Assembly: GCF_007748075.1 (NCBI RefSeq)
Contig: NZ_CP036280.1
Coordinates: 180,001-212,000 of the forward strand
From: Mucisphaera calidilacus
Lineage (GTDB): Bacteria; Planctomycetota; Phycisphaerae; Phycisphaerales; Phycisphaeraceae
Length of the DNA: 32,000 nt
Direction: 5' to 3'
The notes beneath the pieces were generated by a model, which was not told where the DNA came from, searched no databases, and worked only from the letters and a program-made list of their open reading frames with translations. Below are positions 2,459-23,458 of the stretch, in pieces. The position numbers and the translations under genes are program-made. The stretch's first letter is position 1; every line of letters begins with the position of its first letter.

Positions 2459-2500
2459 GGTGGTTGCTTTCCTGAGGCTTCGGGTTTCGATGGCCCGTTT

Positions 2501-4267: not shown

Positions 4268-4337
4268 GAGTGATGCCTTCCCAAGCGTTTTCGTGACGCG
4301 GTGGCGTCATTGTAAAGGACAACGGGGGAAGGGGTTG

Positions 4338-4904: not shown

Positions 4905-5041
4905 GGGGTCAGTTTAAAGGGGTGACGACCCGAGGTGTCGCTTGGCGAGGCGTGTCCGGCAGAGATGACCTGAGGTGACGTCCGGAGGTGTTACTTGTGA
5001 CACGTTCGAGGCGGGGCCGCCTCGCTGGAAGTTCCGCAGAA

Positions 5042-5115
<74 letters not shown>

Positions 5116-5154
5116 TAGCGTGGCCTCAGTATACCCGTTGGGTGGGTGGAGGGT

Positions 5155-6267: not shown

Positions 6268-6455
6268 GTCGGTGTCCTGTGGTTTGAGATTCAGGGTCGG
6301 TCGGATCGTACCGGCTGGGGCCTTGGGGTGTGGATCAAGTGTTGACCGGATCGAACGTTATGGATGATTTTATGGTCTTATTCAGACTAACCTAAAAGCG
6401 TCAGATTCGTTCATTAGGCGTTAAATATCGGGTTTTAGGCTGTATGTGCTGGACA

Positions 6456-6514
6456 TGAATGACCGATGCAGGTAATGTAATGAACGAATTGAACGATTTG
6501 AAAATGGTCATTCA
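6456..6514 (+). promoter_or_regulatory. 9-bp perfect inverted repeat (TGAATGACC ... GGTCATTCA) in the AT-rich leader of the sigma-factor gene
   Basis: The arms are at 6456-6464 and 6506-6514. The 3' arm ends 2 nt before the AGGAGA Shine-Dalgarno (6517-6522). The loop contains tandem GAACGAATT/GAACGATTT (6482-6499) and GTAAT x2 (6472-6481). Function is inferred only. Confidence 0.3.
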
Positions 6515-6528
6515 ACAGGAGATCGATC

Positions 6529-7542: not shown

Positions 7543-7568
7543 AAAACGAATCAGAACCTTCTCAGCGG

Positions 7569-7610
7569 CGCCTGATGTCCCCACGGAGACGTCAGGCGTC
7601 TTATCATTGG
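7569..7610 (+). terminator. Possible terminator or attenuator hairpin between the sigma-factor gene and argG
   Basis: CGCCTGATGTC (7569-7579) pairs with GACGTCAGGCG (7588-7598): 11 bp including one G-U, 8-nt loop. It is followed by a T-rich but interrupted TCTTATCATT. Confidence 0.35.
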
Positions 7611-7631
7611 GGTTTCCCTCTGGAGAGTGCC

Positions 7632-8867
7632 ATGTCCGCGAAAGACAACCCCAAGAAGATCGTGCTCGCCTACTCGGGCGGGCTGGACACGTCCGTGATC
7701 CTGCCCTGGCTCAAGGATCGTTACCCCGGCGTCAAGCTGGTGGCTTTTGCCGCTGAGCTGGGTCAGGGCGATGAGTTGAAGGGGATTGAGGAGAAGGCGT
7801 ACGCGTCGGGCGCGGACGAGGTGGTGGTGAAGGACCTGCGCCGGGAGTTTGCGGAGGAGTACTGCTACCCGATGATCCGTGCGCACGCGGTGTACGAGAC
7901 GGATTACCTGCTGGGAACGAGTATCGCCCGTCCGCTGATCGCCAAGCACCAGGTGCTGGCGGCGAAGCAGACAAAGGCAGACGCGGTGGGTCACGGCGCG
8001 ACGGGCAAGGGGAACGATCAGGTCCGTTTCGAGCTGACGTACCGGGCGCTGAACCCGCGGCTGAAGATCGTGTCGCCCTGGAAGGATCCGGCGTTCCTGG
8101 CGTCGGGCCTGACGGACCGCGAGACGGCGATTGACTACGCGAAGAAGCACAAGATCCCCATCGAGCAGAGCAAGAAGAAGATCTACTCGCGTGACCGCAA
8201 CCTCTGGCACATCTCGCACGAGGGCGCGGAGATCGAGGACCCGGCGAGCGAGCCGTCGTGGAAGAACTGCCTGGTGATGTCGTTGACGCCTGAGAAGGCG
8301 CCGAACAAGTCGGCGACGGTGACCCTCGGCTTTGCCAGGGGCAATCCGGTTTCGATCGACGGCGAGAAGCTGCGTGGCGAGCAGATCATCGAGAAGCTCA
8401 ACGCGTTGGGCGGTCGGCACGCGGTGGGCACGACGCTGCTGGTCGAGAACCGGCTGGTGGGGATGAAGTCACGGGGCGTCTACGAGACGCCCGGCGGGAC
8501 GATTCTGTACGAGGCGCACAAGGCGCTGGAGCAGGTCTGCCTGGAGCGTGACCTGTTTCACGAGAAGATCCGGTTGGCGTCGCGGTACGCGGAGCTGGTC
8601 TACAACGGCCAGTGGTTCCACCCGTTGCGTGAGGCGTTGCAGGCGTTCTTCGACAGGGCGAACCAGGTGGTGACGGGCGAGGTCAAGGTGCGGCTGTACA
8701 AGGGCACGGCGACGGCGGTGGAGGCGAGCAGCCCGAAGTCGCTTTACGACGAGAAGCTGGCGAGTTTCGCGATGGACGGCTACGACGTGACGGCGGCCCG
8801 AGGCTTTATTGATCTCTATGGTCTGCCCATGACGGTGGCGGGTCGCCGGCAGCCACCGAAGCACTGA
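7632..8867 (+). CDS. argG: Argininosuccinate synthase
   Basis: MSAKDNPKKIVLAYSGGLDTSV carries the N-type ATP-pyrophosphatase motif. HGATGKGNDQVRFE and ENRLVGMKSRGVYETPGG are also present. I prefer the ATG at 7632 (GGAGAG RBS) over the upstream in-frame ATG at 7575. Confidence 0.95.
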   Translation: MSAKDNPKKIVLAYSGGLDTSVILPWLKDRYPGVKLVAFAAELGQGDELKGIEEKAYASGADEVVVKDLRREFAEEYCYPMIRAHAVYETDYLLGTSIARPLIAKHQVLAAKQTKADAVGHGATGKGNDQVRFELTYRALNPRLKIVSPWKDPAFLASGLTDRETAIDYAKKHKIPIEQSKKKIYSRDRNLWHISHEGAEIEDPASEPSWKNCLVMSLTPEKAPNKSATVTLGFARGNPVSIDGEKLRGEQIIEKLNALGGRHAVGTTLLVENRLVGMKSRGVYETPGGTILYEAHKALEQVCLERDLFHEKIRLASRYAELVYNGQWFHPLREALQAFFDRANQVVTGEVKVRLYKGTATAVEASSPKSLYDEKLASFAMDGYDVTAARGFIDLYGLPMTVAGRRQPPKH

Positions 8868-8897
8868 GCGTGACGAACAGGATGATTCGATCTTTTG

Positions 8898-8930
8898 CGG
8901 GCCGTGCCTCTGAGGCGCGGCCCGTTTTTT
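8898..8930 (+). terminator. Rho-independent terminator downstream of argG
   Basis: CGGGCCGTGCC (8898-8908), loop TCTGA, GGCGCGGCCCG (8914-8924), then TTTTTT (8925-8930). Confidence 0.75.
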
Positions 8931-9116
8931 GTGCATGATTCCCGGTTTATCCAGTTGAACGTGAAGGGGGGCAAGGCTTGCGGGGTGCGGTCGTGAATTG
9001 TGGCCGGAGGCTGTTTTTTGAGCTTCTTTGAGTTGGAGTGAGGCCTGTTGAATCGCATACTCCGGTGGCAGCCGGAAGGGCGGCTGACTACGAACCACTC
9101 CGTGAAAGGGAGAACT

Positions 9117-9911
9117 ATGCGTGGATGGATGAGCGCGGCCGCTGTGGCGGCCTGCGGAATCATGGTGGGCAACGCCGAGGCGACGAGCGTCGTGACGCTC
9201 GACTGGCAGGGTTACGTCGGCGGCAGCATCAAGACGAATCTGGGCAACCGCAACGCGGGCCTGATGCGTTGGAGCCAGTCGGCGGGCGACGCGGTCTCGG
9301 TGAACCTGACCGACGTCACCAAGAAGTCGGGTGGCGGGACGATCACGGGCTTCCTGGCCTTCTGCATCGAGCCGCTCGAGTCGCTGCACAACGGCGGCAA
9401 CGAGTTCGCGGTGCTCGAGCCTGAGCAGGCCCCGAACAAGCCGGCCCCGATGGGCGCGATCCGTGCCGAGAACATGGGCAAGCTGTTCGAGGTTGGCTTC
9501 CTGGGCACGTCGGAAGACGACTGGAAGGTCAACGGCTCGTTCGACATGAACTACATCAAGGCGTTCCAGCTCGCGGTGTGGGAGGTTGTGAACGAGGCCG
9601 TGGTGAACGGCATGCAGACGCTGAACATCCTCAAGGGTGACACGGCGGACCGCGGCGGCTTCTACAGCAACTACTCGGACAGCCACGCGATTGCCTCGCT
9701 GTCGCAGAGCCTGCTCGATCAGGCGATGGCCTCGGACACCTCGGCGAACCTGATTGCCTTCGGTGCTCCGTTTGAGGACGTGACGCGTCGCAGCCAGGAT
9801 CAGATCACGCTGTCCTCGACGCCCCCGGCTCCGCCCATGGTCCCGACGCCCGCCGCCGCCGCGGCCGGCCTCCTGGGTCTGGCGGGTCTCGCGGGTCGCC
9901 GTGGCCGCTAA
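9117..9911 (+). CDS. Secreted PEP-CTERM-anchored protein with thioester-domain-like Cys and Gln motifs
   Basis: Start at ATG 9117 (GGGAGA RBS). The signal peptide is MRGWMSAAAVAACGIMVGNAEA. The C-terminus is PPMVPTPAAAAAGLLGLAGLAGRRGR: a Pro-rich motif, a hydrophobic helix and an Arg cluster, which is PEP-CTERM-type architecture. Internal FCIEP and FQLAVWE motifs are discussed in the findings. Confidence 0.75.
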   Translation: MRGWMSAAAVAACGIMVGNAEATSVVTLDWQGYVGGSIKTNLGNRNAGLMRWSQSAGDAVSVNLTDVTKKSGGGTITGFLAFCIEPLESLHNGGNEFAVLEPEQAPNKPAPMGAIRAENMGKLFEVGFLGTSEDDWKVNGSFDMNYIKAFQLAVWEVVNEAVVNGMQTLNILKGDTADRGGFYSNYSDSHAIASLSQSLLDQAMASDTSANLIAFGAPFEDVTRRSQDQITLSSTPPAPPMVPTPAAAAAGLLGLAGLAGRRGR

Positions 9912-9946
9912 CCCGACAGCAGTCTTGTGGCCTTGTTGATTCCATC

Positions 9947-9984
9947 AAAACGCCGTGCCCCGTTCTGGGGTACGGCGTTTTTTT
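9947..9984. terminator. Strong, potentially bidirectional rho-independent terminator
   Basis: AAAA, CGCCGTGCCCC (9951-9961), loop GTTCT, GGGGTACGGCG (9967-9977), then TTTTTTT (9978-9984). It sits between convergent genes. Confidence 0.8.
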
Positions 9985-10013
9985 GTGTGTGACGGTTGAA
10001 GCGTGGCGGTGGA

Positions 10014-10223
10014 TCAGGCGGCGTCGTCTTCGGGCAGCTTGAGGCCGGGGACGACCTGGCCGTGCGCGACCTCGGTGCAGCGTGTGAGCAGTGCCTTGGG
10101 GTGCTCATGGGCGAGGCGGCGTTCGGCGTCGTGTCGGTCGGCGGCGATGAACTTGACGCGTCGGCGGAGGACGCCGTTGGCGTCGATGAAGTCCATCTCG
10201 AACTGTCGTGCGAATTCGGGCAT
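10014..10223 (-). CDS. Small hypothetical protein (69 aa)
   Basis: Codon position 3 is very GC-rich (ccc, ttc, gac, atc, gcc, aac, ggc, gtc and so on) and the composition is non-repetitive. The overlapping plus-strand ORF is G/V/D/E-rich and shadow-like. The start lies only about 30 nt downstream of a terminator, so expression is uncertain. Confidence 0.4.
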   Translation of the reverse strand: MPEFARQFEMDFIDANGVLRRRVKFIAADRHDAERRLAHEHPKALLTRCTEVAHGQVVPGLKLPEDDAA

Positions 10224-10254
10224 GGTGCTGATCTCGTCGGTTGATCCCTGGGCG

Positions 10255-10285
10255 AAAAAGACGACGGATCGGTGGATCCGCCGCC
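10255..10285 (-). terminator. Rho-independent terminator downstream of the HDOD gene
   Basis: The minus strand reads GGCGGCGGATC-CACC-GATCCGTCGTC-TTTTT: an 11-bp stem with two G-U pairs and a 4-nt loop. It lies 30 nt after the stop at 10315. Confidence 0.75.
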
Positions 10286-10314
10286 CGGAGGGAAAAGAGA
10301 GATACGGTTGTCGC

Positions 10315-11220
10315 TCATCCGTTCATGAGCGCGGAAGCTTCGTCGTAGGCCGCGGGGAGGCTTTCGAGGACGCGGTCGATGGCCTCGGGTTCGAGCCCGA
10401 GTGTTTCGAGCCATTCGGCCTTGGGCTCGGTGCGGTCTTCGCCACGCGTGAAGCCGAAGCCGGCCTTGGCGGCGAGGCAGTCGGCGACGGCGACGATGGT
10501 GGGCAGGACGGCTTCCTCGCCGTCGAAGCGTTCGGGCTCGTGGTGGCCGCCGATGACGTTGACCAGGGCGGGCGGGAACTTCCAGCTGCGTGCCAGGACG
10601 CGGCCGAAGTCCTCGTGCGAGGCGTTGAAGGTCTTGAACTCGACCTCGCGGAACGAGATGTTTTCGTCGGCGAGGACGGTCTCGATGCACTGGATGAACT
10701 TGGGCCGACGCGACTGGATCTCGACCATGAGGCCGAGGTCGTGGATGAGTCCTGCGAGGAAGGCTTCGTCGAGGTAGCCCATCGAGAGCTCGTTGACGAG
10801 CAGCCGTGCGCCGGCGGCGGTGGCGATGCTGTGGAGCCAGAGGTCCTTGGCGGAGAAGCCCTCGGTGATCTTGCCGCTGCGGAAGAGCTTGGTGAGGCTG
10901 GCGGCGATGGCGATGTTCTTGATGGCGTTGAGCCCGAGCAGGACGATGGCCCGGTTGATGGAGCCCACCTGTGCCGGGACGCCGTAGAAGGCGGAGTTAA
11001 CGACCTTGAGGATGCGGGCGCCGAGCGCGGGGTCGTTCTGGATGACCAGATTGAGATCCTGCGCGGTGGCGTTGGGATCGTCGATCAGGTCCATGATCTT
11101 GGTGGTGACTTCGGGCAGGGTGGCGATGTGGCTGATCTCGCGGATCGCCGGCTCGACAACCTTCTCGGCTTTGGTGATGCGTGCTTCGATCTCTGCTTTG
11201 CTGGTTCCGGATGCGGCCAT
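10315..11220 (-). CDS. HDOD domain-containing signalling protein
   Basis: LPEVTTKIMDLIDDPNATAQDLNLVIQNDPALGARILKVVNSAFYG, LWLHSIATAAGARLL and GLIHDLGLMV match the HDOD (HD-related output domain) pattern. I prefer the ATG at 11220 (GAGAGGGA RBS) over the ATG at 11310. Confidence 0.85.
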   Translation of the reverse strand: MAASGTSKAEIEARITKAEKVVEPAIREISHIATLPEVTTKIMDLIDDPNATAQDLNLVIQNDPALGARILKVVNSAFYGVPAQVGSINRAIVLLGLNAIKNIAIAASLTKLFRSGKITEGFSAKDLWLHSIATAAGARLLVNELSMGYLDEAFLAGLIHDLGLMVEIQSRRPKFIQCIETVLADENISFREVEFKTFNASHEDFGRVLARSWKFPPALVNVIGGHHEPERFDGEEAVLPTIVAVADCLAAKAGFGFTRGEDRTEPKAEWLETLGLEPEAIDRVLESLPAAYDEASALMNG

Positions 11221-11336
11221 GGTGTCCCTCTCGTGGAATAAATGAAGACCTGTCTGGGGGATCGGTGCGGGCTGGGCGGGACTTGATGGCGTCCAGTTAA
11301 TCTGCCTCATTGCAGGGCGGATGAGGTGGGTCTAGC

Positions 11337-11633
11337 ATGGCTGTGATGGCTTGGGGATTTCGCCTGAATCAGTTCGATGGGCCCGGTTTTGATCCGGGTC
11401 GGGTTGCGCGGGCCAACTGGCCTGCGGCGATGTCGTTGCTGGTGGCCGGGGTTGTGGTTCTGATCCCGCTGATCGCGTTGCTGGCCGTCGGGATCGCGGT
11501 GGGGATGCTCTGCTACCTGGTGTTATCGGTCGTTGCGGGCGTGATGAACGTGGTGAGCGGCGTCTTCGGCCCGAGGGGGGGCGGCCGCGGGCGTGACTCG
11601 GACGGCCGGGAGAATGTTCGGGTGATTCGATGA
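11337..11633 (+). CDS. Small membrane protein (98 aa), first gene of the MscS/Mla-like operon
   Basis: A long hydrophobic core (AAMSLLVAGVVVLIPLIALLAVGIAVGMLCYLVLSVVAGVMNVV) is followed by a Gly/Arg-rich tail GPRGGGRGRDSDGRE. The stop overlaps the next start (ATGA at 11630-11633). Confidence 0.55.
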   Translation: MAVMAWGFRLNQFDGPGFDPGRVARANWPAAMSLLVAGVVVLIPLIALLAVGIAVGMLCYLVLSVVAGVMNVVSGVFGPRGGGRGRDSDGRENVRVIR

Positions 11634-13243
11634 TCGCGGCGATGCGTTACCTGGTGCTGGTTCTGGCGGTTTCCCTGTTGGTGCCGGTGGCGGCGCAGGA
11701 TTTTGGGATGGACCCGCTGCTGATGCCGCCGGCCGAGTCAGCGGAGGTGCCCAAGACGAGCGAGGCGGGGTCGGAGCCGGAGGCGGCGGCGGGCGGGGCG
11801 TTGCAGGCGTCGGCGGAGGATGATCGCGCGGAGTACCTGGATGATGCGCGTTGGAAGGTGCTCCGGGACGTGATCGAGGATCGAGCCCCGGCGTGGATGA
11901 TCGAGGACGGCGCGCTGGGGGTGGCGTACTGGCAGTGGATCAGCGTGCTGCTGTTTATTTTCGGCGCGGTGGTGATCGATTACTCGGTGCAGATCGTGCT
12001 TCGGGTGGCGATCAACCGGTTGTTGAAGGAGCAGGGGGCGCACGCCCGCCGGGATGAGCTGCGCAAGACGCTGCGTCCCTTCGGCCTGACCGCGGGTGCC
12101 TTGTTCTGCCTGGTGACGCTGAACTTCCTGCAGTTTGACGGGGTGGTGTACGCGATCGCGCACGGCTCGCTGGCGATCTTCACGGTGCTGACGGGTTCGG
12201 TGTCGGCGTGGCGTTTTATTGATCTGGTGGGCGACGTGTTTGCCCGCTACGCACAGAACACGAGCACGCGTTTTGATGACGTGCTGATCCCGCTGATCCG
12301 CAAGACGCTCAAGCTGTTCGTGCTGGTGCTGGGCTTTGTGTACGCGTCGACGTCGCTGGGGCTGAACCCGTGGCCGATCGCCGCGTCGCTGGGCCTGGGC
12401 GGTGTGGCGTTTGCGTTTGCGGCGAAGGACACGGTGGAGAACTTCTTCGGCTCGCTCGCGGTGCTGGTGGACCGTCCGTTTGATGTGGGCGACTGGGTGG
12501 TGATTGACGGTCAGGAGGGGACGATCGAGTCGGTGGGTTTCCGGTCGACCCGGGTGCGGACGTTCTACAACTCGCAGATCACGATCCCGAACGCGAATCT
12601 GGTGCGTGCCGCGGTGGATAACTACGGGCGTCGTCGTTATCGGCGGTGGAAGACGACGATGGGCCTGCAGTACGACACGCCGCCCGACAAGCTGCTGGCG
12701 TTCGCTGAGGGCGCCCGGGAGCTGGTGCGTCAGCACCCGTTTACGCGCAAGGACTACTACCAGGTGTGGGTGAACGAATTCAACGCGTCGAGCATCGACG
12801 TGCTGCTCTATATGTTCTTTGACGTACCGGACTGGAGCACGGAGCTGCGTGAGCGTGAGCGTCTGCTGGTGGATCTGGTCCGGCTGGCAGACCAGGTGGG
12901 CGTGAGTTTCGCGTTCCCGACGACGACGGTGCACCTCAAGCAGGACGAGGGTGATCCGGTTTATAAGCAGCACGAGCGTCCCAAGCGGATCACGGACCGG
13001 TTGGCAATGCTCCAGGGCGCTCGGGCGGCGCGTTCGATCATCAGCGATCAGCCCTGGCGTGAGACGCTGCCGGACCCCGTGGATTACGGGAAGAATGACC
13101 TGGGTCTTGAACTGGACGCGGCGGGTAATCCGATAGAACCGGTGGAGACGCAGGTTTCGGACGATCCCGAGACGGCGTCGGAGGACGGTGTCGAGGTCGG
13201 GGAGGCCGGAGAGGATACCGAGCCCAGACGAGAGACCCTGTGA
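11630..13243 (+). CDS. MscS-family mechanosensitive ion channel protein
   Basis: 537 aa with an N-terminal signal peptide. The MscS core is AFAAKDTVENFFGSLAVLVDRPFDVGDWVVIDGQEGTIESVGFRSTRVRTFYNSQITIPNANL. Confidence 0.92.
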   Translation: MIAAMRYLVLVLAVSLLVPVAAQDFGMDPLLMPPAESAEVPKTSEAGSEPEAAAGGALQASAEDDRAEYLDDARWKVLRDVIEDRAPAWMIEDGALGVAYWQWISVLLFIFGAVVIDYSVQIVLRVAINRLLKEQGAHARRDELRKTLRPFGLTAGALFCLVTLNFLQFDGVVYAIAHGSLAIFTVLTGSVSAWRFIDLVGDVFARYAQNTSTRFDDVLIPLIRKTLKLFVLVLGFVYASTSLGLNPWPIAASLGLGGVAFAFAAKDTVENFFGSLAVLVDRPFDVGDWVVIDGQEGTIESVGFRSTRVRTFYNSQITIPNANLVRAAVDNYGRRRYRRWKTTMGLQYDTPPDKLLAFAEGARELVRQHPFTRKDYYQVWVNEFNASSIDVLLYMFFDVPDWSTELRERERLLVDLVRLADQVGVSFAFPTTTVHLKQDEGDPVYKQHERPKRITDRLAMLQGARAARSIISDQPWRETLPDPVDYGKNDLGLELDAAGNPIEPVETQVSDDPETASEDGVEVGEAGEDTEPRRETL

Positions 13244-14076
13244 CGCACCCGGCTTTTGCTCTGACACAACATGGTTGGCTGCGACGGCTGCTGCGCCCGT
13301 GGTCGCTGCTGATGCGGACCTCGGAGCGGGGGCTGATCATCTTTGCGGCGGTGGGGGCTGCGCTGCGTCTGGCGGTGCGTCCGTCGACGTGGAACCGTGC
13401 GGTGCGTGAGGAGTTAGCCCGTCAGGTGATCAACGCGGGCCTGTTCGCGGTGCCCGCGGCGGCGTTGGCGGGGATCGGCGTCGGGGTCTTCATCGTGGTT
13501 CAGGCCCAGCAGTGGCTGGACCGTTTGGGGCACGTCTCGCTGCTGGGGCCGCTGCTGGTGGTGGGCGTGGTCCGGGAGATCGCTCCGCTGGTCACGAACC
13601 TGCTGGTGATCGGGCGCAGCGGGTCGTCGATGACGACCGAGGTGGCGAACATGAAGATGCTGGGGGACGTGGACCTGCTTGAGGCGCAGGGGATCGACCC
13701 GTTTGTCTACCTGGTGGTGCCGAGGATTCTCGGGATGGGGATCGCGGTGTTGTGCCTGAACCTGATCGTGCTGCTGGTGAGTCTGATCAGCGGTCGTCTG
13801 CTGGTGCTGATCGTGAGTTCGGACCCGACGCCTATGGTTGCGTTCGCGGACAACGTGCTGCGTTCGCTGGAGGTGATCGATGTGTTCAACCTGCTGGCGA
13901 AGACGGTGCTGACGGGCATGCTCACCGGCGCGATCTGCTGCGTGACGGGGTTGCAGGCGGCGCCGCACCCGCTGGCGGTGGCGGCTGCGTCGCGTGCGTC
14001 GTTCATGCGTTGCATGGCGGCGTTGCTGACGGTGTCGGGTTTTGTGTCGCTGAGCATGTATCTGGATCTGGTGTGA
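13240..14076 (+). CDS. mlaE: MlaE-family ABC transporter permease
   Basis: The MlaE signature region is VREIAPLVTNLLVIGRSGSSMTTEVANMKMLGDVDLLEAQGIDPFVYLVVPRILG. The GTG start overlaps the mscS stop (GTGA at 13240-13243). Confidence 0.88.
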   Translation: MTHPAFALTQHGWLRRLLRPWSLLMRTSERGLIIFAAVGAALRLAVRPSTWNRAVREELARQVINAGLFAVPAAALAGIGVGVFIVVQAQQWLDRLGHVSLLGPLLVVGVVREIAPLVTNLLVIGRSGSSMTTEVANMKMLGDVDLLEAQGIDPFVYLVVPRILGMGIAVLCLNLIVLLVSLISGRLLVLIVSSDPTPMVAFADNVLRSLEVIDVFNLLAKTVLTGMLTGAICCVTGLQAAPHPLAVAAASRASFMRCMAALLTVSGFVSLSMYLDLV

Positions 14077-14077
14077 G

Positions 14078-14836
14078 ATGATCGTGACGCACCCCGAGCC
14101 GCCGGCGGCCGAGACGGACACGCGGAGCGTGGAGCGTCTGGTGCTGCGTGATGTTGACCTGCCCGCGGGTCGTCAGCACGATACGCGACTGAGTGGCGTG
14201 AATCTGTCGCTGGGCGTGGGCGAGATGGTGATCGTTCAGTCGGAGCCGGAGCGGCCGCGTCTGCCGCTGGCCGACGCGATCATGGGGTTGACGGACACGG
14301 CGGGCGGGAGCATCGCGGTGGACGACTCGTCGTGGGATGACCTGACGCCTGCGCGTGCGGCCCGGCTTCGGAGCCAGATCGGGCGGGTGTTCGATCACGA
14401 CCGGTGGCTGAGCGGGCTGACGCTCGAGGAGAATGTTTTTCTCGCGGCGCGGTATCACCACCAGATGCGTGAGGAGACGATGGTGGTGGAGGCAGTGCGT
14501 CTGGCGGAGAGTTTTGGTCTGGCGGGCTTGCCGACGAGCCTGCCGTCGCGGTCGCCTGTCGAGCTGCGTCAGAAGGTGGCGTGGATCCGTGCGCTGCTGG
14601 GGCCTCGTCGTCTGCTGATCCTTGAGCAGCCGCTGGGTGGTGTTTCGGCGCAGGACGCGCGTGCGTTGGGGCGTTCGTTGGGGCAGTTTCGGGCGCAGGG
14701 TGCGGCGGTGATCTGGATCACGGACGTCCCGGTGCCGATCGACTGGCCCGGGATGCTGCCCGATTACCTGGCGCGTGTGACGGGGACCGAGTTGGCGGTG
14801 GAGCCGGGGATGCTGCCGCGTGGAGGAGATCCATGA
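14078..14836 (+). CDS. MlaF-like ABC nucleotide-binding-domain homologue with degenerate catalytic motifs (probable pseudo-ATPase)
   Basis: Colinear with E. coli MlaF as recalled from memory. Walker A GPSGxGKT is replaced by SEPERPRL. The Q-loop Q is replaced by D (FDHDRW). The signature LSGG is replaced by RSPVEL. Walker B hhhhDE is replaced by LLILEQ. The H-loop SHD is replaced by ITDV. ATG lies 1 nt after the mlaE stop. Confidence 0.8.
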   Translation: MIVTHPEPPAAETDTRSVERLVLRDVDLPAGRQHDTRLSGVNLSLGVGEMVIVQSEPERPRLPLADAIMGLTDTAGGSIAVDDSSWDDLTPARAARLRSQIGRVFDHDRWLSGLTLEENVFLAARYHHQMREETMVVEAVRLAESFGLAGLPTSLPSRSPVELRQKVAWIRALLGPRRLLILEQPLGGVSAQDARALGRSLGQFRAQGAAVIWITDVPVPIDWPGMLPDYLARVTGTELAVEPGMLPRGGDP

Positions 14837-15870
14837 GTCGACCGCTGGTGCAACGATACGCGGGGCCGGTCGCCGGCCTGTTCGTGGTGAGTGTTCTGAT
14901 CCTGCTGCTGGTGCTGGTGCTGGCGGCGAGCAGCCGTGGCAACTGGTTTGCGCGCACGGTTCCGGTGACGGTGACGCTGCCGGAGGAGGGCGCATTTGGC
15001 CTGCGGCCGGGCGCGGACATCCAGATCCTCGGCATCGTCGCGGGCAACGTGACCGAGATCACGCTCGTGGGCGACCGCCTGGTGGCACAGGGACGGATCC
15101 GCGGGGATCTGGCGACGCTGCTGCGTGTGGATGTCCCGGTTTACCTGCGTCGCACGCTGCTGGTGTCGGGCGACACGTACCTGGAGATCGTGCGGAGCGA
15201 GGGGACGCCTTTTGCGGAGGGCGAGACGATGGTGCTGCGGGCGCAGACGGACCCGAGTCTCGAGTCGTTGCCCGGCGAGCTGCGCGAGACGCTGGCGTCG
15301 TTCACGCGTACCGCGCGGGCTTACGAGGGGTTGCTCGAACGCATCGAGGATCCGGAGGGGCGTGTGCAGCAGATCCTGGCGAACACCGAGTCGGTGACGC
15401 GTGAGATGGAGCGTGTGGTGGTGGCTTTTCGTGAGCAGGACGCGATCGGCATGATCGCGGACATGCGCGAACGTGTGGACCGGATCATCGCGTCGCTGGA
15501 CAACCTCGTGGGTGTGGCGACGGAGGGTGTGGAGACGGCGACGGCGACGGTGCGCACGGTCGAGGAGCAGCTGACCTACCTGCCGGAGCTGGCGGAGGCG
15601 TCGGCGGAGACGATCAGGCTGGTGCAGGGAAACCTGACGCAGCTGCGTGAGATCATCGAGTCGCTCGAGCGTGTGACCGAGACGCTGAGCGACGAGCTGC
15701 GTGACTCGCCTGGCGTGCTGATGCAGGTCCGTTCGACGCTCAAGGAGCTCGAGTCGTTGAGCCGGGCGTTGCGTCGGAGCTGGCTGGTGACGGGACCGGA
15801 GCTGGGGCGGGAGCCGTCGGACGGTCCGGATGAGCCGGTGGGTGGCGTTGATCTGATTGGGAATCGCTGA
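14833..15870 (+). CDS. mlaD: MlaD/MCE-domain protein with a long coiled-coil C-terminal region
   Basis: An N-terminal TM helix (VAGLFVVSVLILLLVLVLAA) is followed by an MCE domain (VTVTLPEEGAFGLRPGADIQILGIVAGNVTEITLVGDRL…) and about 190 aa of helical E/L/R-rich sequence. ATGA overlap with the upstream gene, and a GGAGGAG RBS. Confidence 0.85.
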   Translation: MSRPLVQRYAGPVAGLFVVSVLILLLVLVLAASSRGNWFARTVPVTVTLPEEGAFGLRPGADIQILGIVAGNVTEITLVGDRLVAQGRIRGDLATLLRVDVPVYLRRTLLVSGDTYLEIVRSEGTPFAEGETMVLRAQTDPSLESLPGELRETLASFTRTARAYEGLLERIEDPEGRVQQILANTESVTREMERVVVAFREQDAIGMIADMRERVDRIIASLDNLVGVATEGVETATATVRTVEEQLTYLPELAEASAETIRLVQGNLTQLREIIESLERVTETLSDELRDSPGVLMQVRSTLKELESLSRALRRSWLVTGPELGREPSDGPDEPVGGVDLIGNR

Positions 15871-16811
15871 TGCGCAGGACGTGCTGGTTGTTATTGGCTC
15901 TGCTGCTGGTGTTGCCCGCCTGCCGGGGTGCGGGGCGTGCGTCGTCGCAGAGCGTCGAGACGGAGTACCACGGTCAGCTGGTGAAGCTCGCGCACGAGGC
16001 GATGGAGCGAGGCGACGCGGACCGGGCTGCGGACCTCTACCTGCGTCGGCTCGAAGAGGCGCGTCGCGTGGACGATCCGGAGGCGTTGGTCACCGTCGCG
16101 GCGTGGGCGGCCCGGGCGATGATGGCGGCGGGGCGCGCGCGCGAGGTCGCGCCGATCCTGAGTGAGGCGGAGCTGGCGGCCGATCGGCTGGGTGTGGTTC
16201 GTGCGGACCTGTCGCTGCTGCGTGGGGCGTCGGAGCTCCGCGAGGGCGAGGCGGATCTGGCGATTGTGTGTGTGGAGCCGATCCTGCGTGGCGATATCGC
16301 GGCGAGTCGGGATCAGCAGCTGGACGCGTTGCTGATCGCGGGGCACGCCGAGATGGATCGTGGCGAGTCGGGCAACGCGCAACTGGCCTGGATCGATGCG
16401 CGGGGGCTCGCTCAGGAGTTGGACGAGGCGTCGGCGTGGGCGCGGACGCTGCGGCTGGAGGCGCGACTGGCACGAGTATCGCGTGACGTGGCGCGGGCGG
16501 CGGCGACCTCGGATCAGGAGGCCGGCTACTGGCGTTCGGCGCATCGCTACCTGGCGATGGCGCACGCGTTGCACCGAGCGGCGCAGGCCTATGCCGAGGC
16601 CGGCGATCTGGAGCTTGCGTCGGATCGGGCGTTGCGGGCGGGCCTGAGTTTCAAGGCGCAGGAGCGTTTCGGGGAGGCGCACGAGGCGTTGCACCTGGCG
16701 CTGGCCGCGTCGGGCGAGGGGGGCGACGCCACCCGCCGGGAACTGGCCGAGCGTGCGTTGGAGGATGCGCGGCTGCGGGCGCTGGATGATCAGTCGGGCA
16801 GCGCGGAGTAG
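15870..16811 (+). CDS. Putative lipoprotein, Ala/Arg/Leu-rich helical-repeat (TPR-like), last gene of the operon
   Basis: The signal plus lipobox-like sequence is MRRTCWLLLALLLVLPAC. The remainder is helical repeat-like. The start overlaps the mlaD stop (TGATG). Confidence 0.65.
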   Translation: MRRTCWLLLALLLVLPACRGAGRASSQSVETEYHGQLVKLAHEAMERGDADRAADLYLRRLEEARRVDDPEALVTVAAWAARAMMAAGRAREVAPILSEAELAADRLGVVRADLSLLRGASELREGEADLAIVCVEPILRGDIAASRDQQLDALLIAGHAEMDRGESGNAQLAWIDARGLAQELDEASAWARTLRLEARLARVSRDVARAAATSDQEAGYWRSAHRYLAMAHALHRAAQAYAEAGDLELASDRALRAGLSFKAQERFGEAHEALHLALAASGEGGDATRRELAERALEDARLRALDDQSGSAE

Positions 16812-17749
16812 GTTGGTTCACGGCCCTCGAGCACGGCCCATACGTCATGCACCACCCACGACATGTTGTCCATGGCGGTGTCGGTGCGCGAGGCTAGGTG
16901 GGGCAGGATACGCACGTTGGGCAGGGTGCGGAGCGGTTCGTCGGGCGCGGGCGGTTCGGGGTCGAGGACGTCGAGGATGACACGGGCGTGGGGGTGTGCC
17001 TTGGCCCAGTCGGCGAGGGCCTGCTGGTCGATGAGCATGCCGCGAGCGGCGTTGATGAGCAGGGCGTCGTCGCAGAGGTGGCCGAGGGTCTGCTCGTCGA
17101 GCAGGTGGCGGTTCTCGGGTCGTCCGTCGACGTGCATGGTGATGACGTCGGCGTCGGCGAGGAGTTGCTCGAGGGGGACGAAGGCAAAGGGGTAGTCGAC
17201 GTCGCGGCGGAGGTCGGCCTCGGGGAGCAGGTCGCAGACGCGGAGGTTCATGCCCAGGGCGTGGGCGGCCTTGCCCAGTCGTTTGCCGATGCGGCCGAGC
17301 CCGAGGATGCCGAGTGTCATCTGGTCGAGCTGTCGGCCGACGTGCTGCTTGCGCATGGTGTGGTACATGCCGTCGTCGGCGATGGCGGGCAGGTCGGCGC
17401 GGGGCCGGACGGCGTCGAGCATGAGGCCGAGGACGTACTCGACGACGGCCTGGCTGTTGGCGTCGGGGGTGTAGACGACCTCGATGCCGCGTCGCTTGCA
17501 GGCGTCAAGGTCGATGTTGTCGAGTCCGACGCCCGCGCGGCCGACGACGCGCAGGCGCGGCGCCGCGTCGAGCAGGTCATCGTTGACGATCGTGTAGGTG
17601 CGCACGATGAGCGCTTCGGCGCGGGCGAGTTCGTCGCGGAATCCGGGCTGATCGTGGGCGTGGCGGACGACGCCGCAGCGCTCGGCGAGCCAGTCGGCGG
17701 GATCCTGACTCAGGTGCTCGCTGATGAGCGCAGTGGGGGTGGGCATCAC
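16790..17749 (-). CDS. D-isomer-specific 2-hydroxyacid dehydrogenase (phosphoglycerate dehydrogenase-like), NAD-binding
   Basis: 319 aa with the Rossmann motif LGILGLGRIGKRLG and the catalytic-region motifs INAARG and HLASRT. Confidence 0.9.
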   Translation of the reverse strand: MMPTPTALISEHLSQDPADWLAERCGVVRHAHDQPGFRDELARAEALIVRTYTIVNDDLLDAAPRLRVVGRAGVGLDNIDLDACKRRGIEVVYTPDANSQAVVEYVLGLMLDAVRPRADLPAIADDGMYHTMRKQHVGRQLDQMTLGILGLGRIGKRLGKAAHALGMNLRVCDLLPEADLRRDVDYPFAFVPLEQLLADADVITMHVDGRPENRHLLDEQTLGHLCDDALLINAARGMLIDQQALADWAKAHPHARVILDVLDPEPPAPDEPLRTLPNVRILPHLASRTDTAMDNMSWVVHDVWAVLEGREPTYSALPD

Positions 17750-17797: not shown

Positions 17798-18055
17798 TCA
17801 GGCGTAGTACTGGGCGTTCTTCTCGACGAAGGCGGCCCATTCTTCGGGCAGGTCTTCTTCGGGGAAGATCGCCTTGACGGGGCACTCGTCGACGCAGAGG
17901 CCGCAGTCGATGCAGGTGTCGGGGTCGATGAACAGCTGCTGCGCGCCCTCGAAGTCGTCCTCGTCGGGTGTGGGGTGGATGCAGTCGACGGGGCAGACGG
18001 CAATGCACGCGGTGTCCTTGGTGGAGACACAGGGTTCAGCGATGATATGTGGCAT
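17798..18055 (-). CDS. fdxA: 7Fe-type ferredoxin (3Fe-4S plus 4Fe-4S)
   Basis: 85 aa. CVSTKDTACIAVCPVDC (C-x7-C-x3-CP) plus CIDCGLCVDECP. It is colinear with Azotobacter/Thermus-type FdxA. Confidence 0.9.
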   Translation of the reverse strand: MPHIIAEPCVSTKDTACIAVCPVDCIHPTPDEDDFEGAQQLFIDPDTCIDCGLCVDECPVKAIFPEEDLPEEWAAFVEKNAQYYA

Positions 18056-18193
18056 GATTTGACTCCCATAACCCGGCGGACCGGGGGTGTTTACGTACTA
18101 CCCCAGAGTATAGAGAGAGCAGCCGGTTCGGGGCAATGCCGCAGCGGATGAAGCTGATCGATACGCCGGGCGCAGACGGGTGCCCGCGGTGGC

Positions 18194-19165
18194 GTGCTGG
18201 CGCATCCGGGCGTCCGGGGCTATGCTCAGGGCATGACTCAAATGCGTTCGAGCGGTGTGATGCCGCGTAATCACCTGGCTCATGCGGACTGTCTGGAGGC
18301 GATGGCGTCGTGGCCCGAGGATGTGATCGACCTGATCTTCGCGGACCCGCCTTACAACATCGGGTTTGATTACGACGGGCACTATCACGACAAGCTGACG
18401 GACGATGAATACGTGGACTGGACCTGTCGCTGGATCGATGCCTGCGCACGGCTCCTGAAGCCGACGGGCAGCTTCTACGTGCTGATCGGCGACGAGTATG
18501 CGGCGGAGTGCCGCGTGCACCTCAAGAAGCTCCAGCGCGAGGGGCAGCTGCTGTTTCGCAACTGGATTGTCTGGCATTACACGTTCGGACAACGCTGCAA
18601 GGTAAAGTTCAACCGCAGCCACGCGCACCTGTTCTACTGCGTCGGCTCGGCGTCGGTCGGGCGTCAGGGCAAGCCGCGGGCGGACCTGGCCAGGCGTCGG
18701 TCGTTCACGTTCAATCACGAGGCGATCGCGGTGCCCTCGGCGCGTCAGACGACCTACAAGGACAAGCGGGCCAATCCGGCGGGCAAGCTGCCCGACGACA
18801 CGTGGTACCTCAAGAACTACCCCGACACCGCGAACTGGTACGTGCGTCCGCAGGAGGCGTCGGAGGATGCGGGGGGCGGCTACTTCGAGCCGGACCTCGA
18901 CACGTGGTATCAGTCGCGGCTCTGCGGGACGTTCAAGGAGCGTCGGGGCTGGCACCCGTGCCAGCTGCCCGAGGCGCTGCTGGAGCGGATCGTGAAGGTG
19001 TCGTCGAATCCGGGGGACCTGGTCTTCGACCCGTTCGTGGGATCGGGGACGACGCTGGCGGTGGCCCGGCGTCTGGGGCGGGATTATCTCGGCTGCGAGC
19101 AGAGCGAGGCGTACGCGGAGCAGGCGCTGGAGCGGATCGAGGGTGAGGCCGTCACGACGGCGTGA
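18194..19165 (+). CDS. Beta-class DNA methyltransferase (N6_N4_Mtase family, DPPY type), no cognate endonuclease nearby
   Basis: Motif IV IFADPPYNIGFDY precedes motif I VFDPFVGSGTTLAVARRLGRDYLGCE, which is the beta-class order. The start is ambiguous: GTG at 18194 or ATG at 18233. Confidence 0.88.
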   Translation: MLAHPGVRGYAQGMTQMRSSGVMPRNHLAHADCLEAMASWPEDVIDLIFADPPYNIGFDYDGHYHDKLTDDEYVDWTCRWIDACARLLKPTGSFYVLIGDEYAAECRVHLKKLQREGQLLFRNWIVWHYTFGQRCKVKFNRSHAHLFYCVGSASVGRQGKPRADLARRRSFTFNHEAIAVPSARQTTYKDKRANPAGKLPDDTWYLKNYPDTANWYVRPQEASEDAGGGYFEPDLDTWYQSRLCGTFKERRGWHPCQLPEALLERIVKVSSNPGDLVFDPFVGSGTTLAVARRLGRDYLGCEQSEAYAEQALERIEGEAVTTA

Positions 19166-19287
19166 ACCGTGTTTTGGGTGAACGGAGCGCATCCGACATC
19201 TTTTCCACAGGCGTCTATCTCTTGGAAGACGGATCGTGTGCGTCTATGGTGCGTGGTGACGCATGACGACTGAAAGGCACGCCAGGG

Positions 19288-22200
19288 ATGGCAGACGGTC
19301 CTGATTTCAACGATCCCAACGGGTTTGTCCACCTTCACCTGCACAGCCAGTACTCGCTGCTGGACGGCGGCAACCGTCTCGACCGGCTCGTGAAGCGGGT
19401 CCGGGAACTGGGGATGCCGGCGGTGGCGGTGACCGACCACGGCAACCTGTTTGGCGCGATCGATTTCTACACACGCGCCAAGAACGAGGGGATCAAGCCG
19501 ATCCTGGGGATCGAGGCGTACGTGGCGCCGGACGTGGACGGGCCGAGCGACCGGACGTCGCGCGCCTTTACGGGTGTGTCGGACGGCGGGTTCCACCTCG
19601 TGCTGCTAGCCGAGGACATGACCGGCTGGCGGAACCTGCTCAAGCTGTCGTCGGACGCGTTCATCAACGGCTTTTACTTCAAGCCGAGGATGGACAAGGG
19701 GACGGTGGAGGCGCACGCGTCGGGCCTGATCGCGATCAACGGGCACCTGGGCTCGTCGATCGCGCACTGGCTGGTGAAGCACGTGCAGTCGGGCGAGAAG
19801 ACGTACTTCAACCGGGCGATGGAGGAGGCGGCGTGGCACAAGGAGGTATTCGGGGTCAACGAGGCGGGCGAGCCGCGTTTCTACCTCGAGCTTCAGCGTC
19901 ACGAGGAGAAGCTCCAGGACGAGATCAACCCGCACGTGATCAAGATCGCGCGCAAGCTGGATATCCCGCTGGTCTGCGACAACGATGCGCACTTCCTGCT
20001 GGAATCGGATTACGACGCGCACGACACGCTCTGCTGCATCTCGATGGGCAAGATCAAGACGGACGAGAGCCGCCTGCACTACCCGCGCGGGCTGTATGTC
20101 AAGTCGCCGGCGCAGATGCGCGGGCTGTTCGAGGACGTGCCCGAGGCGCTGGACAACACGCTCAAGATCGCGGAGCGGTGCAACGTCGCGTTGGACTTCG
20201 ACGCGAACCACGCCCCGGTGGTGCGGATCGACTTCAAGAAGGACAAGGCCCTCAAGGGCAAGTCGGCGCCACCCGTGGGCTCGAGCGACTGGTTCAAGCG
20301 GTTCTGTGCGCAGTACGAGTTGCTGCCTTTCGATGCGACACGTGACGCGGCGCTGAGCGCGGAGGACCTCAAGACCGAGTGCGACAAGGCGCTGCGCGAC
20401 CTGTGCGAGGCGGGCCTGCTCTGGCGATACGGCGAGGGCGGGATCACCGACGAGATCCGGGCGCGGCTCGAGCGTGAGCTGAAGATCCTGTCGGACAAAC
20501 TCATCTCGGCCTACTTCCTGATCGTGTGGGATTTTGTGAACTACGCGCGGGCCAACGGCATCCCGTCGAACGCCCGTGGCTCGGGCGTCGGGACGATGGT
20601 CGGTTACGTGCTCGGCCTGTCGAACGCGTGCCCGGTGCAGTACGGGCTGCTGTTCGAGCGGTTCACCGATCCGGACCGGTCGGAGTACCCCGATATCGAT
20701 ATCGACATGTGCCAGGACGGGCGTCAGGCGGTGATCGATTACGTCCGGCAGAAGTACGGGCACGTGGCGCAGATCATCACGTTCGGGACGCTCAAGGCGC
20801 GGGCGGCGATCCGGGACGTGGGGCGTGTGCTCAACATGCCGTTGTCCGAGGTCGACAAGGTCTGCAAGCTGGTGGGCGACGGGCTCGGGACGACACTCGA
20901 CAAGGCGCTGGACCAGGAGCCGGACCTGCGCAAGCTGTACGACGACTCGCCCGAGCACCAGAAGATGTACGACACGGCGCGTCGGCTGGAGGGGATGGCC
21001 CGTCACGCCGGCGTGCACGCGGCGGGCGTGGTGCTGGCGACCCGGCCGCTGGACGACATCGTGCCGCTGTATCAGCCGGCGGGCACCGAGCAAGTCGTGA
21101 CGCAGTGGGACGGGCCGACGTGCGAGCGTGTCGGTCTGCTCAAGATGGACTTTCTGGGGCTGCGGACGCTCTCGATTCTGGAGCGTGCCAAGCTGCTGGT
21201 TCGTTCGTGCTTCAGCGAGGAGCGGATCCGTCAGGCGGCGGCGCGGCCCGACCGGCCCGAGCAGCTGGAAGACCCGGCGTGGGACCCGCTGGACCTCGAG
21301 CGACTGAGTTACGACGACCCGCGGGTGCTGAGCCTCTTTGCGCGGGGCGAGACGGCGGCGGTGTTCCAGTTCGAGTCGGGGGGCATGCGCAACCTGCTGA
21401 TGGCGATGAAGCCGGACCGGCTGGAGGACCTGATCGCGGCGAACGCGTTGTACCGGCCCGGCCCGATGGAGCTGATCCCGAACTACAACAACCGCAAGCA
21501 CGGCCGGGAGGAGGTCCCCGAGCAGCACGAGATCGTGCGGAAGTTCACGGCGGAGACGCACGGGATCATGGTGTACCAGGAGCAGGTGATGCAGATCGTC
21601 CACGAGCTGGGCGGCATCCCGTTGCGACAGGCGTACACGCTCATCAAGGCGATCTCGAAGAAAAAAGAGAAGGTGATCAACGCCAACCGCGCTTCGTTCC
21701 TCGACGGCGCGGAGGAGAAGGGCCTGGCGCGGGCGAAGGCGGAAGAGCTTTTCGACCTGATCCTCAAGTTCGCGGGCTACGGCTTCAACAAGTCGCACTC
21801 GACGGGCTACGCGATCGTCGCCTACCAGACGGCGTACCTCAAGACCTTCTTCCCGATCCAGTACATGGCGGCCGTGCTGACCTACGAGTCGGTGAGCACG
21901 GACAAGGTCGTCGAGTACATCGACACCTGCCGGCGTCTGTCGCTGCCCGACGGGACGCGAGGCGTCGAGGTCAAGCAGCCGGACATCCAGCGCTCGGAGG
22001 TCGGCTTCACGGTTGTCTACGACGACGACGAACCGGGGCCCGACGAGCGTGGCGGGCATCACGGGCACATCCGCTTCGGGCTGTCGGCGGTCAAGGGCGT
22101 GGGCGAGAAGGCGATCAACGCGATCATCGAGGCGCGCGAGAAGGAGGGGCCGTTCCGCGGCCTACACGACTTCTGCGAGCGTGTGCCGCTGGACGCGGTG

Positions 22201-23232: not shown

Positions 23233-23458
23233 TGGAATTCTCGCACGGGGGGTGGCCCGCTCGTGCCGGGGTGTTATGCTGTCCGCGTGGCCACTGCCTG
23301 ATTCACAACTCGGTCAGACAACGCACGACGAGAAGCCTCGTTGCAGCAGTTGTGGTCCGCTCCGAGCCAGGCCTGACCGGGTTCCCCTCCGCGTGTTCGA
23401 TCGGTGATTCCCGATGTTGTGACGCTGTTGAGCGTCGATCGATCACAGGACTCGTTGT

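Follow-up and report, generated by a model that had tools for sequence, protein, structure and literature searches.

The window analysed here is a stretch of 32,000 nucleotides from the genome of Mucisphaera calidilacus (Phycisphaerae). Positions 11337-16811 of its plus strand hold six co-directional open reading frames, whose coordinates and strand were verified. The six genes and the two genes flanking them are as follows.

10315..11310, minus strand: HDOD-domain gene (PF08668, 182 bits), divergent from the array
11337..11633, plus strand: p98, a small membrane protein with a hydrophobic stretch of ~45 residues and a conserved C-terminal motif, GR[ER]NVRV[IV]
11630..13243, plus strand: predicted YnaI-like MscS-family channel (beta domain PF00924 at residues 267-333, 77.5 bits against a cut-off of 20.2) with a signal-like N-terminal helix
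13240..14076, plus strand: MlaE-family permease (PF02405, 147 bits), the first of four cassette genes
14078..14836, plus strand: pseudo-NBD, an ABC nucleotide-binding fold from which every ATP-binding and hydrolysis motif is gone (PF00005, only 26.3 bits)
14833..15870, plus strand: MCE (MlaD-like) protein with an N-terminal transmembrane anchor, a single MCE domain (~43-120) and a helical C-terminal region of ~200 residues
15870..16811, plus strand: TPR lipoprotein (lipobox Cys, and TPR matches in homologues), the last cassette gene
16790..17749, minus strand: D-2-hydroxyacid dehydrogenase gene (PF02826 and PF00389), convergent with the array

The junctions, with spacings of -4, -4, +1, -4 and -1 nt along the array, are all on the plus strand.

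11630-11633, plus strand: ATGA, p98/mscS
13240-13243, plus strand: GTGA, mscS/mlaE
14077, plus strand: 1-nt gap, mlaE/NBD
14833-14836, plus strand: ATGA, NBD/MCE
15868-15872, plus strand: TGATG, MCE/lipoprotein

A preliminary description of this DNA had reported six co-directional genes with overlapping or abutting codons, and both the reading frames and all five junction sequences agree with it. There are two candidate starts for mlaE, GTG at 13240 (4-nt overlap) and ATG at 13312 (68-nt gap); the former is favoured because a related genome (L160) has the same GTGA overlap and N-terminal homology begins at that codon. Identical junction types were seen again in three related genomes (L001, L081 and L160), which shows that the close spacing is no isolated case. 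The p98/mscS ATGA overlap is retained in all four genomes of this clade. The array thus has the sequence features of a single operon, being co-directional and having no intergenic gaps, terminators or sigma-70-like sites between its genes, and the six genes are probably co-transcribed as one unit.

It is unlikely that the array consists of two transcription units, with a promoter located within the 3' end of mscS driving the cassette alone and no regulatory coupling. At other sites the cassette is preceded by an upstream region of its own, and in two loci (L082 and L083) the genes ahead of it are divergent; the weakly conserved C-terminal tail of MscS could also accommodate embedded signals. 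However, no terminator-like site was found at any junction, including mscS-mlaE, and a scan of 10800-17200 gave zero promoter-like sites under a sigma-70 consensus, which covers planctomycete promoters poorly. Within this scope, the scan did not find the promoter or terminator splitting mscS from mlaE that the preliminary description had considered. Moreover, the 3' end of mscS contains no non-coding DNA block conserved in the four genomes, where only a coding motif is conserved, and the tight mscS-mlaE spacing (-4 to about +12 nt in 4 of 4 genomes) favours read-through and coupled translation. Thus a single transcription unit is preferred.

With regard to the left part of the array, the HDOD gene probably starts at Met31 (11220), which is consistent with the gene calls of 304 aa (L081) and 301 aa (L160) and leaves a divergent promoter region of ~116 nt. 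Of the 80 loci scanned with MscS, 16 from Phycisphaerae have a divergent HDOD gene upstream of the channel gene, as do L081 and L160; it is a conserved left-flank marker of the ancestral p98-mscS unit. The p98 protein did not match any family in Pfam or NCBIfam. An HMM built from six homologues found a same-strand p98 directly upstream of MscS in 16 loci, and p98 appears to be an ancestral upstream partner gene of the MscS subfamily concerned. On the right side, the dehydrogenase gene begins at most ~150 nt past the MscS match in three loci (L043, L045 and L046), and it is the ancestral right-flank marker, directly after mscS in outgroups. The channel itself has more than 2,000 homologues, of which the best 120 listed are 48-67% identical and chiefly from Planctomycetota. 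Two further MscS models, for the pore-lining TM3 helices and the C-terminal alpha/beta domain, were slightly under their cut-offs (PF21088, 20.9 against 23.1; PF21082, 19.7 against 21). Among solved structures the channel comes closest to E. coli YnaI (1.8e-33), with matches to MscS in the PDB as well, and the alignment to YnaI (residues 222-437) takes in the pore helix, the beta domain and the C-terminal domain. On the other hand, the channel of the window differs from YnaI in its length of 537 aa, its signal-like N-terminus and acidic N-terminal region, and the conserved p98 gene ahead of it, which YnaI does not have.

In the cassette, the permease matched the MlaE and YrbE1A structures in the PDB (1e-16 to 3e-12) and scored 98 bits against TIGR00056, under the subfamily cut-off of 212. 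The MCE domain is borderline (PF02470, 27.0 bits against 25.1), and the score of the MCE protein against the equivalog model TIGR04430 (26 against 135) indicates that it is not an MlaD orthologue. Coiled-coil-type matches lie within its residues 139-318, and a faint 'Helical_needle' match was found among its homologues. The lipobox Cys of the last protein (LPAC in the window) recurs in most of 25 inspected homologue N-termini (LAGC, LVGC and similar), TPR Pfam families matched 10 of 14 homologues (best E 3.4e-13), and the last 22 nt of its gene also belong to the convergent dehydrogenase gene. None of the six array proteins matched the STAS (MlaB) or MlaC families.

The most unusual member is the NBD. 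Motifs were defined as GxxGxGK[ST] for Walker A, LSGGQ for the signature, D-E for Walker B and His for the H-loop. Alignment to canonical NBDs and HMMER alignment to MacB revealed that Walker A, Q-loop, signature, Walker B and H-loop are all replaced in the window protein, and the same five are replaced in 29 of 29 aligned family members. Among the best 150 family representatives, Walker A and the signature were each present in 0/150 and a Walker-B-like motif in 2/150. This family comprises about 576 clusters (50% identity) at E<=1e-30, and the motif loss is family-wide, not specific to the window. The ABC fold is retained despite the motif loss, as seen in the AF2 model (pLDDT 90.6) and its Foldseek TM-scores of 0.65-0.79 to the NBDs of MacB, LolD, MlaF and MceG. 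Thus the family assignments of the preliminary description mostly hold (MscS, MlaE, MCE and lipoprotein), but its 'MlaF-like NBD' is a predicted pseudo-ATPase and not a competent ATPase. Since the NBD is degenerate in this way, 'Mla operon' is only an approximate label.

The cassette resembles E. coli MlaFEDB(C,A) in its PF02405 permease (PDB MlaE matches of 1e-16 to 2e-12), its membrane-anchored single-MCE-domain protein and an NBD-fold subunit gene adjoining the permease gene. It differs in the absence of all five motifs from the NBD, the lack of a STAS (MlaB) or MlaC gene, the terminal TPR lipoprotein gene, the order E-F-D instead of F-E-D, and the size of the MCE protein, which at 345 aa includes a long helical tail, whereas E. 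coli MlaD has 183 aa (PMC10665443). In Veillonella parvula, a minimal MlaEFD core has a 'long' MlaD, which was proposed to bridge the envelope, and such a core was reported to be widespread and probably ancestral (Grasekamp et al. 2023, PMC10665443). The window shares with it the mlaE-mlaF-mlaD order, overlapping codons, a locus without MlaC and MlaA, and an elongated MlaD. However, MlaF of V. parvula is close to its counterparts in model diderms, and the MlaD of this species terminates in an outer-membrane beta-barrel (PMC10665443), whereas the window encodes a degenerate NBD and, instead of the barrel, a TPR lipoprotein as a protein of its own.

Likeness to the mycobacterial Mce systems is found in the alignment of MCE protein residues 18-291 with TIGR00996 (Mtu_fam_mce) and in YrbE1A among the PDB matches of the permease. 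Mycobacterial Mce1-4 and E. coli PqiABC and LetAB contain MCE proteins with long helical extensions and a lipoprotein partner (PqiC-like role), which resemble the predicted helical extension and lipoprotein of the window. Mce1 comprises six MCE genes and two permease genes, whereas the window has one of each. Pqi and Let operate without an ABC ATPase, and by analogy the pseudo-NBD system might likewise do so, though it lacks PqiA or LetA and keeps an NBD-fold subunit.

Gene neighbourhoods were compared from both ends of the array. The MscS-seeded test covered 80 species-level loci of the nearest MscS orthologues, 71 of them with at least 1 kb downstream. The order MlaE-NBD-MlaD-Lipo followed mscS in only one of the 80 (L001, Mucisphaera sp.), the other 79 being without the cassette behind mscS; the genes downstream of the next-closest orthologues (P0005, 59%, and P0010, 57%) are unrelated. 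Two further relatives (L081 and L160) carry the six-gene arrangement, which makes four genomes including the window. The cassette-seeded set consisted of 75 metagenome loci and 3 others with the pseudo-NBD, among which the MlaE-NBD-MlaD(-Lipo) order is conserved: outside the window, mlaE precedes the pseudo-NBD gene in 65 loci, the MCE gene follows it in 58, and the cassette MlaE-NBD-MCE-(TPR lipoprotein) is found in 68. MscS was upstream of mlaE in 0 of the 36 cassette loci having at least 1 kb of upstream sequence. The conservation of the MscS-MlaE adjacency that the preliminary description had proposed to search for was not borne out (1/80 and 0/36), and the adjacency is confined to one small planctomycete group. 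Within that group, gene order in the three relatives follows that of the window from ArgG through DnaE, and with the whole ~17-kb neighbourhood collinear the adjacency would be kept without need of special selection.

In outgroup Phycisphaeraceae the backbone is HDOD, p98, MscS, 2-hydroxyacid dehydrogenase, ferredoxin and methyltransferase, with the cassette absent. Three outgroups (L043, L045 and L020) keep the HDOD, MscS, dehydrogenase and methyltransferase genes; the HMM detects p98 in each of them, and ferredoxin is present in L043 and L045. Between mscS and the dehydrogenase gene, where gaps are up to ~150 nt, tblastn found no cassette remnant in three outgroups. The pseudo-NBD is 54-64% identical within the clade and at most 41% outside, and the outside copies with examined contexts lie in unrelated genomic places. 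The GC3 of the cassette (0.81-0.86, against 0.84-0.91 in the flanks) gave no signal of foreign origin, and no repeats flanking the cassette were found.

We consider it likely that two autonomous modules, p98-mscS and the four-gene cassette, were fused into this array in one lineage. The former, divergent from the HDOD gene, would be ancestral at this Phycisphaerae chromosomal position, and the latter (MlaE, pseudo-NBD, long MCE protein and TPR lipoprotein) would be a self-contained module, of which many other genomes carry a free-standing copy. Insertion of the cassette exactly between mscS and the convergent dehydrogenase gene, with zero intergenic space left, would have taken place in the ancestor of the Mucisphaera clade, and the cassette would now most likely be read through from the p98/mscS promoter. 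Its source may have been translocation or horizontal acquisition, both being compatible with the data. The channel would presumably act as an ordinary osmotic release valve. The cassette would presumably form an inner-membrane complex of MlaE2/pseudo-NBD2/MCE6 type, whose helical MCE extension may reach toward the TPR lipoprotein and which may work without ATP hydrolysis by its own NBD. Survival of the array despite MscS divergence to 60-67% identity across the four genomes could reflect selection, and general synteny explains it equally well.

The preliminary description had taken translational coupling to imply stoichiometric co-production and a functional link of MscS with Mla. We regard it as improbable that p98, MscS and the Mla-like proteins are one functional unit, in which translational coupling sets the stoichiometry and tension sensing is linked to lipid transport. 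The unbroken array with overlapping stop and start codons and its retention in four genomes with such divergent MscS would fit this idea, and so would an NBD unable to hydrolyse ATP, in that another input might control the cassette. Moreover, in four cassette loci of another clade a distantly related MscS paralogue lies 5-7 kb downstream, which hints weakly that such proximity recurs. However, several ORFs, including one of ~712 aa, separate this paralogue from the cassette, the two modules are independent elsewhere (79/80 and 0/36), outgroups keep the backbone without the cassette, and clade-wide collinearity accounts for the retention. MscS forms heptamers and Mla forms MlaE2F2D6-type complexes, whose stoichiometries are unrelated, and no paper among the searched literature treats MscS and MlaE as a single system. 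Co-expression is the only coupling with evidence, and nothing points to a physical complex. There is little likelihood that the Mucisphaera lineage has an ATPase-dead MlaE/MCE machine wired transcriptionally, perhaps physically, to tension-gated MscS and p98; if it were true, membrane tension, and not ATP, would gate or trigger intermembrane lipid movement. It is very improbable that the six-gene operon is the original state in Phycisphaerae and that every other lineage has lost the cassette at this position. If the Mucisphaera clade were the earliest branch of the HDOD/p98/MscS genomes, a single loss at this locus would be no less parsimonious than a single gain. Against this reading stand the 15 non-clade HDOD/p98/MscS loci without the cassette, the fall in pseudo-NBD identity outside the clade with examined copies in unrelated places, and the dehydrogenase gene abutting mscS without cassette remnant in three outgroups.

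As a fusion of two modules, the array reflects a gene-order change local to a single planctomycete clade; it sets no general principle and should not be cited in support of tension sensing being linked to lipid trafficking. The pairing of p98 with a YnaI-like MscS across Phycisphaerae makes p98 a candidate accessory subunit. No description of an MlaE-MCE variant with a degenerate NBD was found in the literature searched, and we lean towards regarding the pseudo-NBD cassette, independent of MscS, as an undescribed ATP-independent class of MlaE-MCE transporters. Because M. calidilacus is in culture (PMC8882080), both this cassette and the p98-MscS pairing are open to experiment. The MlaE-MCE-lipoprotein cassette is widespread, and its NBD is without any nucleotide-binding motif yet under selection, which prompts one to ask how an MCE machine of the ABC type runs without ATP hydrolysis and what purpose the NBD scaffold serves.

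The six-gene array around the MscS gene of Mucisphaera calidilacus is most likely a lineage-specific operon fusion, in which a YnaI-like MscS pair was joined to a cassette of genes for an MlaE permease, an NBD-fold protein without ATPase motifs (pseudo-NBD), an MCE protein and a TPR lipoprotein. Re-reading of the sequence confirmed the six co-directional ORFs and their junctions as claimed in the preliminary description (ATGA, GTGA, 1-nt gap, ATGA and TGATG, in this order):

11337-11633, plus strand, gene 1, p98, small membrane protein of 98 aa
11630-13243, plus strand, gene 2, MscS channel of 537 aa
13240-14076, plus strand, gene 3, MlaE permease of 278 aa
14078-14836, plus strand, gene 4, NBD-fold protein of 252 aa
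14833-15870, plus strand, gene 5, MCE protein of 345 aa
15870-16811, plus strand, gene 6, TPR lipoprotein of 313 aa

With regard to protein identities, the earlier assignments to MscS, MlaE, MCE and lipoprotein families stood in Pfam, PDB and lipobox comparisons, while gene 4 turned out not to be an ordinary MlaF. Gene 2 belongs to the MscS family (PF00924, 77.5 bits), its nearest solved structure being E. coli YnaI (1.8e-33), and gene 3 to the MlaE family (PF02405, 147 bits), with PDB matches to MlaE and mycobacterial YrbE1A. The gene 5 product is membrane-anchored and has a single MCE domain and a helical tail of ~200 residues, with no PDB sequence match. Gene 6 encodes a lipoprotein; of 25 homologue N-termini that were looked at, most show a lipobox cysteine, and TPR families were matched in 10 of 14 homologues.

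The motif losses of the gene 4 product were read from a pairwise alignment with MacB and from a 34-sequence alignment including five canonical NBDs.

ATPase motifs, canonical form and form in the pseudo-NBD
Walker A: canonical GxSGSGKST; here SEPERPRLP
Q-loop: canonical Gln; here Asp/Glu
Signature: canonical LSGGQ; here absent
Walker B: canonical hhhhDE; here LLILE[Q/R/N]
H-loop: canonical His; lost in nearly all members

PLADA, RIGRVF, ENV.LA.RHH and VRALLG are the family's own conserved motifs. The AlphaFold2 model is confident (pLDDT 90.6) and superposes on the NBDs of MacB, LolD, BceA, MlaF and MceG with TM-scores of 0.65-0.79. In an exhaustive search with a profile, run against 1.84 billion representatives, E<=1e-30 was reached by 576 proteins (about 576 clusters at 50% identity), and among the best 150 of these 576 representatives, none had Walker A or the signature and two had a Walker-B-like motif. 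Members collected here (14078-14836 of the window, proteins P0121-P0316, loci L082-L159) are encoded between mlaE and the MCE gene. Taken together, the motif losses, the confident ABC-fold model and the search counts indicate that gene 4 encodes a predicted pseudo-ATPase from a sizeable family of non-catalytic subunits with an NBD fold, which is under selection and linked to MlaE and MCE genes. No description of a degenerate or pseudo-ATPase MlaF was found in the literature searched, and we call the family only apparently undescribed because that literature does not cover everything.

Two start codons are candidates for mlaE, GTG at 13240, which overlaps the mscS stop, and ATG at 13312. The overlap is probably real, because GTGA is also present in L160, one of the relatives sharing the array, MlaE protein homology runs from that GTG, and the MlaE coding region starts at most about 12 nt from the mscS stop in two further relatives. 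In L001 (Mucisphaera sp., 11435-11530), the MlaE frame runs on in frame from the TAG stop of mscS, with the first ATG, GTG or TTG only at +90 nt and homology to the MlaE N-terminus of L081 from about +6; the frame may be read through, start at a non-canonical codon or contain a sequencing error.

An internal promoter or terminator separating mscS from mlaE, which the preliminary description had named as something that would refute its reading, was not detected. None of the array junctions has a terminator-like site, and 10800-17200 has no sigma-70-like promoter in a scan with a sigma-70 model, which covers planctomycete promoters poorly. Terminator-like matches inside mscS and mlaE were at background (6 observed vs 3.2 +/- 2.0 expected), and alignment of the mscS 3' ends of four genomes for a conserved internal promoter revealed conservation of a coding motif only. 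Judged from these sequence features, the array is probably one transcription unit, so that the channel is likely to be co-expressed with the cassette in the Mucisphaera clade.

The window was assigned to M. calidilacus (Phycisphaerae, Planctomycetota) by a protein match of 100%. With a 26-orthologue MscS alignment, contigs representing one genome per species were screened, and the 80 loci that matched best were taken with 10 kb on each side and searched by tblastn with the six array proteins and both flanking genes. Sequence after mscS extended for 1 kb or more in 71 of the 80; MlaE-NBD-MCE-lipoprotein followed mscS in L001 only, and the next-closest orthologues (59% and 57% identity) had unrelated genes downstream. 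Exact-protein look-ups added two more carriers of the array, L081, a Phycisphaeraceae MAG with 60-61% MscS identity, and L160, a contig of 7 kb. A minus-strand MlaE gene 3-7 kb after MscS in 10 Phycisphaerales loci of one clade (among them L034, L035, L036, L038, L040, L047, L048, L051 and L057) was rejected as a second linkage, since it encodes a distant paralogue (23-26% identity) on the opposite strand; it lies outside any pseudo-NBD cassette, and other ORFs separate it from mscS in L035. The ORF adjoining this paralogue in L035 may be STAS-like, as judged by eye from its N-terminus.

Seen from the cassette, the NBD relatives form a small distinct set, set apart from canonical ABC proteins by a gap in bit score between 99 and 56. 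Three relatives on long contigs lie in cassettes of MlaE, NBD, MCE and a TPR-like protein of ~313 aa, with unrelated genes upstream. A metagenome scan with an 8-sequence NBD alignment added 75 loci, and the order MlaE-NBD-MCE(-lipoprotein) was constant across the resulting 78; MscS was upstream of mlaE in none of the 36 with at least 1 kb there. In four loci of another clade, the pseudo-NBD cassette is followed after 5-7 kb, on its own strand, by a distant MscS paralogue, which makes a second case of proximity:

L114, 10723-10989, cassette's strand, MscS paralogue
L121, 15314-15994, cassette's strand, MscS paralogue
L122, 15283-16146, cassette's strand, MscS paralogue
L142, 15540-16220, cassette's strand, MscS paralogue

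These paralogues are 25-29% identical to the window MscS and 64-80% among themselves. Recurrent linkage was rejected in favour of clade-level synteny as the more likely explanation, since several unrelated ORFs intervene. One of these, of ~712 aa, has the length of the CHASE2/guanylate-cyclase gene that was called in the corresponding place in L083.

The window shares its gene order with L001, L081 and L160 over a stretch that begins with argininosuccinate synthase, continues with HDOD, p98, MscS, the cassette, 2-hydroxyacid dehydrogenase, ferredoxin and methyltransferase and ends with DnaE. Since this collinearity covers the whole region in the clade, no selection on the adjacency itself is needed to explain why it has persisted. 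The outgroup Phycisphaeraceae loci L043, L045 and L020 keep the HDOD, MscS, dehydrogenase and methyltransferase genes (L043 and L045 also ferredoxin) and have no cassette, the dehydrogenase gene lying at most about 150 nt after the MscS match in L043 and L045 and about 1.7 kb away in L020. On the simplest reading, an autonomous four-gene cassette would have been inserted once, in the Mucisphaera stem, on the 3' side of an ancestral p98-mscS unit. Flanking repeats around the cassette were only short and at chance level, and we found no tRNA nearby, no GC3 anomaly in the cassette and no block of non-coding conservation at the 3' end of mscS.

The p98 protein has a hydrophobic stretch of ~45 residues and a conserved C-terminal motif, GR[ER]NVRV[IV], and matches no family in Pfam or NCBIfam. 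A word-index homologue search with p98 matched only p98 itself and one relative. With a purpose-built HMM, applied to the ORFs in all six frames of the fetched loci, p98 was found immediately before genes of this MscS subfamily, and in the same orientation, at 16 loci of Phycisphaerae (L020 included), all with a divergent HDOD gene and with a p98-to-mscS gap of -4 to about 500 nt. The p98 protein may be an accessory subunit. Its copies are:

window, 11337-11633
L001, 9393-9713
L081, 5281-5589
L043, 8875-9177
and 12 more loci

For the HDOD gene (10315-11310, minus strand), the start of the longest ORF is only 26 nt from p98; a start at Met31 (11220) agrees with gene calls of 301-304 aa in relatives and gives room for a divergent promoter region of ~116 nt. 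Further upstream, a 287-aa protein (9048-9911, plus strand) without Pfam match is kept in three clade relatives (52-69% identity), and has a C-terminus (...PTPAAAAAGLLGLAGLAGRRGR) that resembles a sorting signal of the PEP-CTERM type. The plus strand has a very strong G-over-C excess in 1-17000 compared with 18000-32000 (GC skew 0.2-0.34), which falls to about 0 by 25-32 kb. Third codon positions show the excess whichever way the genes run, with values of +0.27 to +0.51 for genes on the plus strand and about -0.5 for those on the minus strand.

Pqi and Let systems do without ATP, and the cassette would be alike in this respect. Unlike canonical Mla, it has neither a functional-looking ATPase nor MlaB and MlaC. 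In layout it comes closest to the long-MlaD form of the MlaEFD core, described by Grasekamp et al. (PMC10665443) as widespread and probably ancestral, but differs in its dead NBD and separate TPR lipoprotein.

The preliminary description had read the array as wiring tension sensing to lipid trafficking. The gene arrangement holds, whereas the functional link (stoichiometric co-production, a complex and tension-controlled lipid transport) is without comparative support, the adjacency being essentially confined to this lineage; no paper in the literature searched treats MscS and MlaE as one system. What the original claim retains is of moderate value and lies in the pseudo-NBD cassette and the p98-MscS pair.
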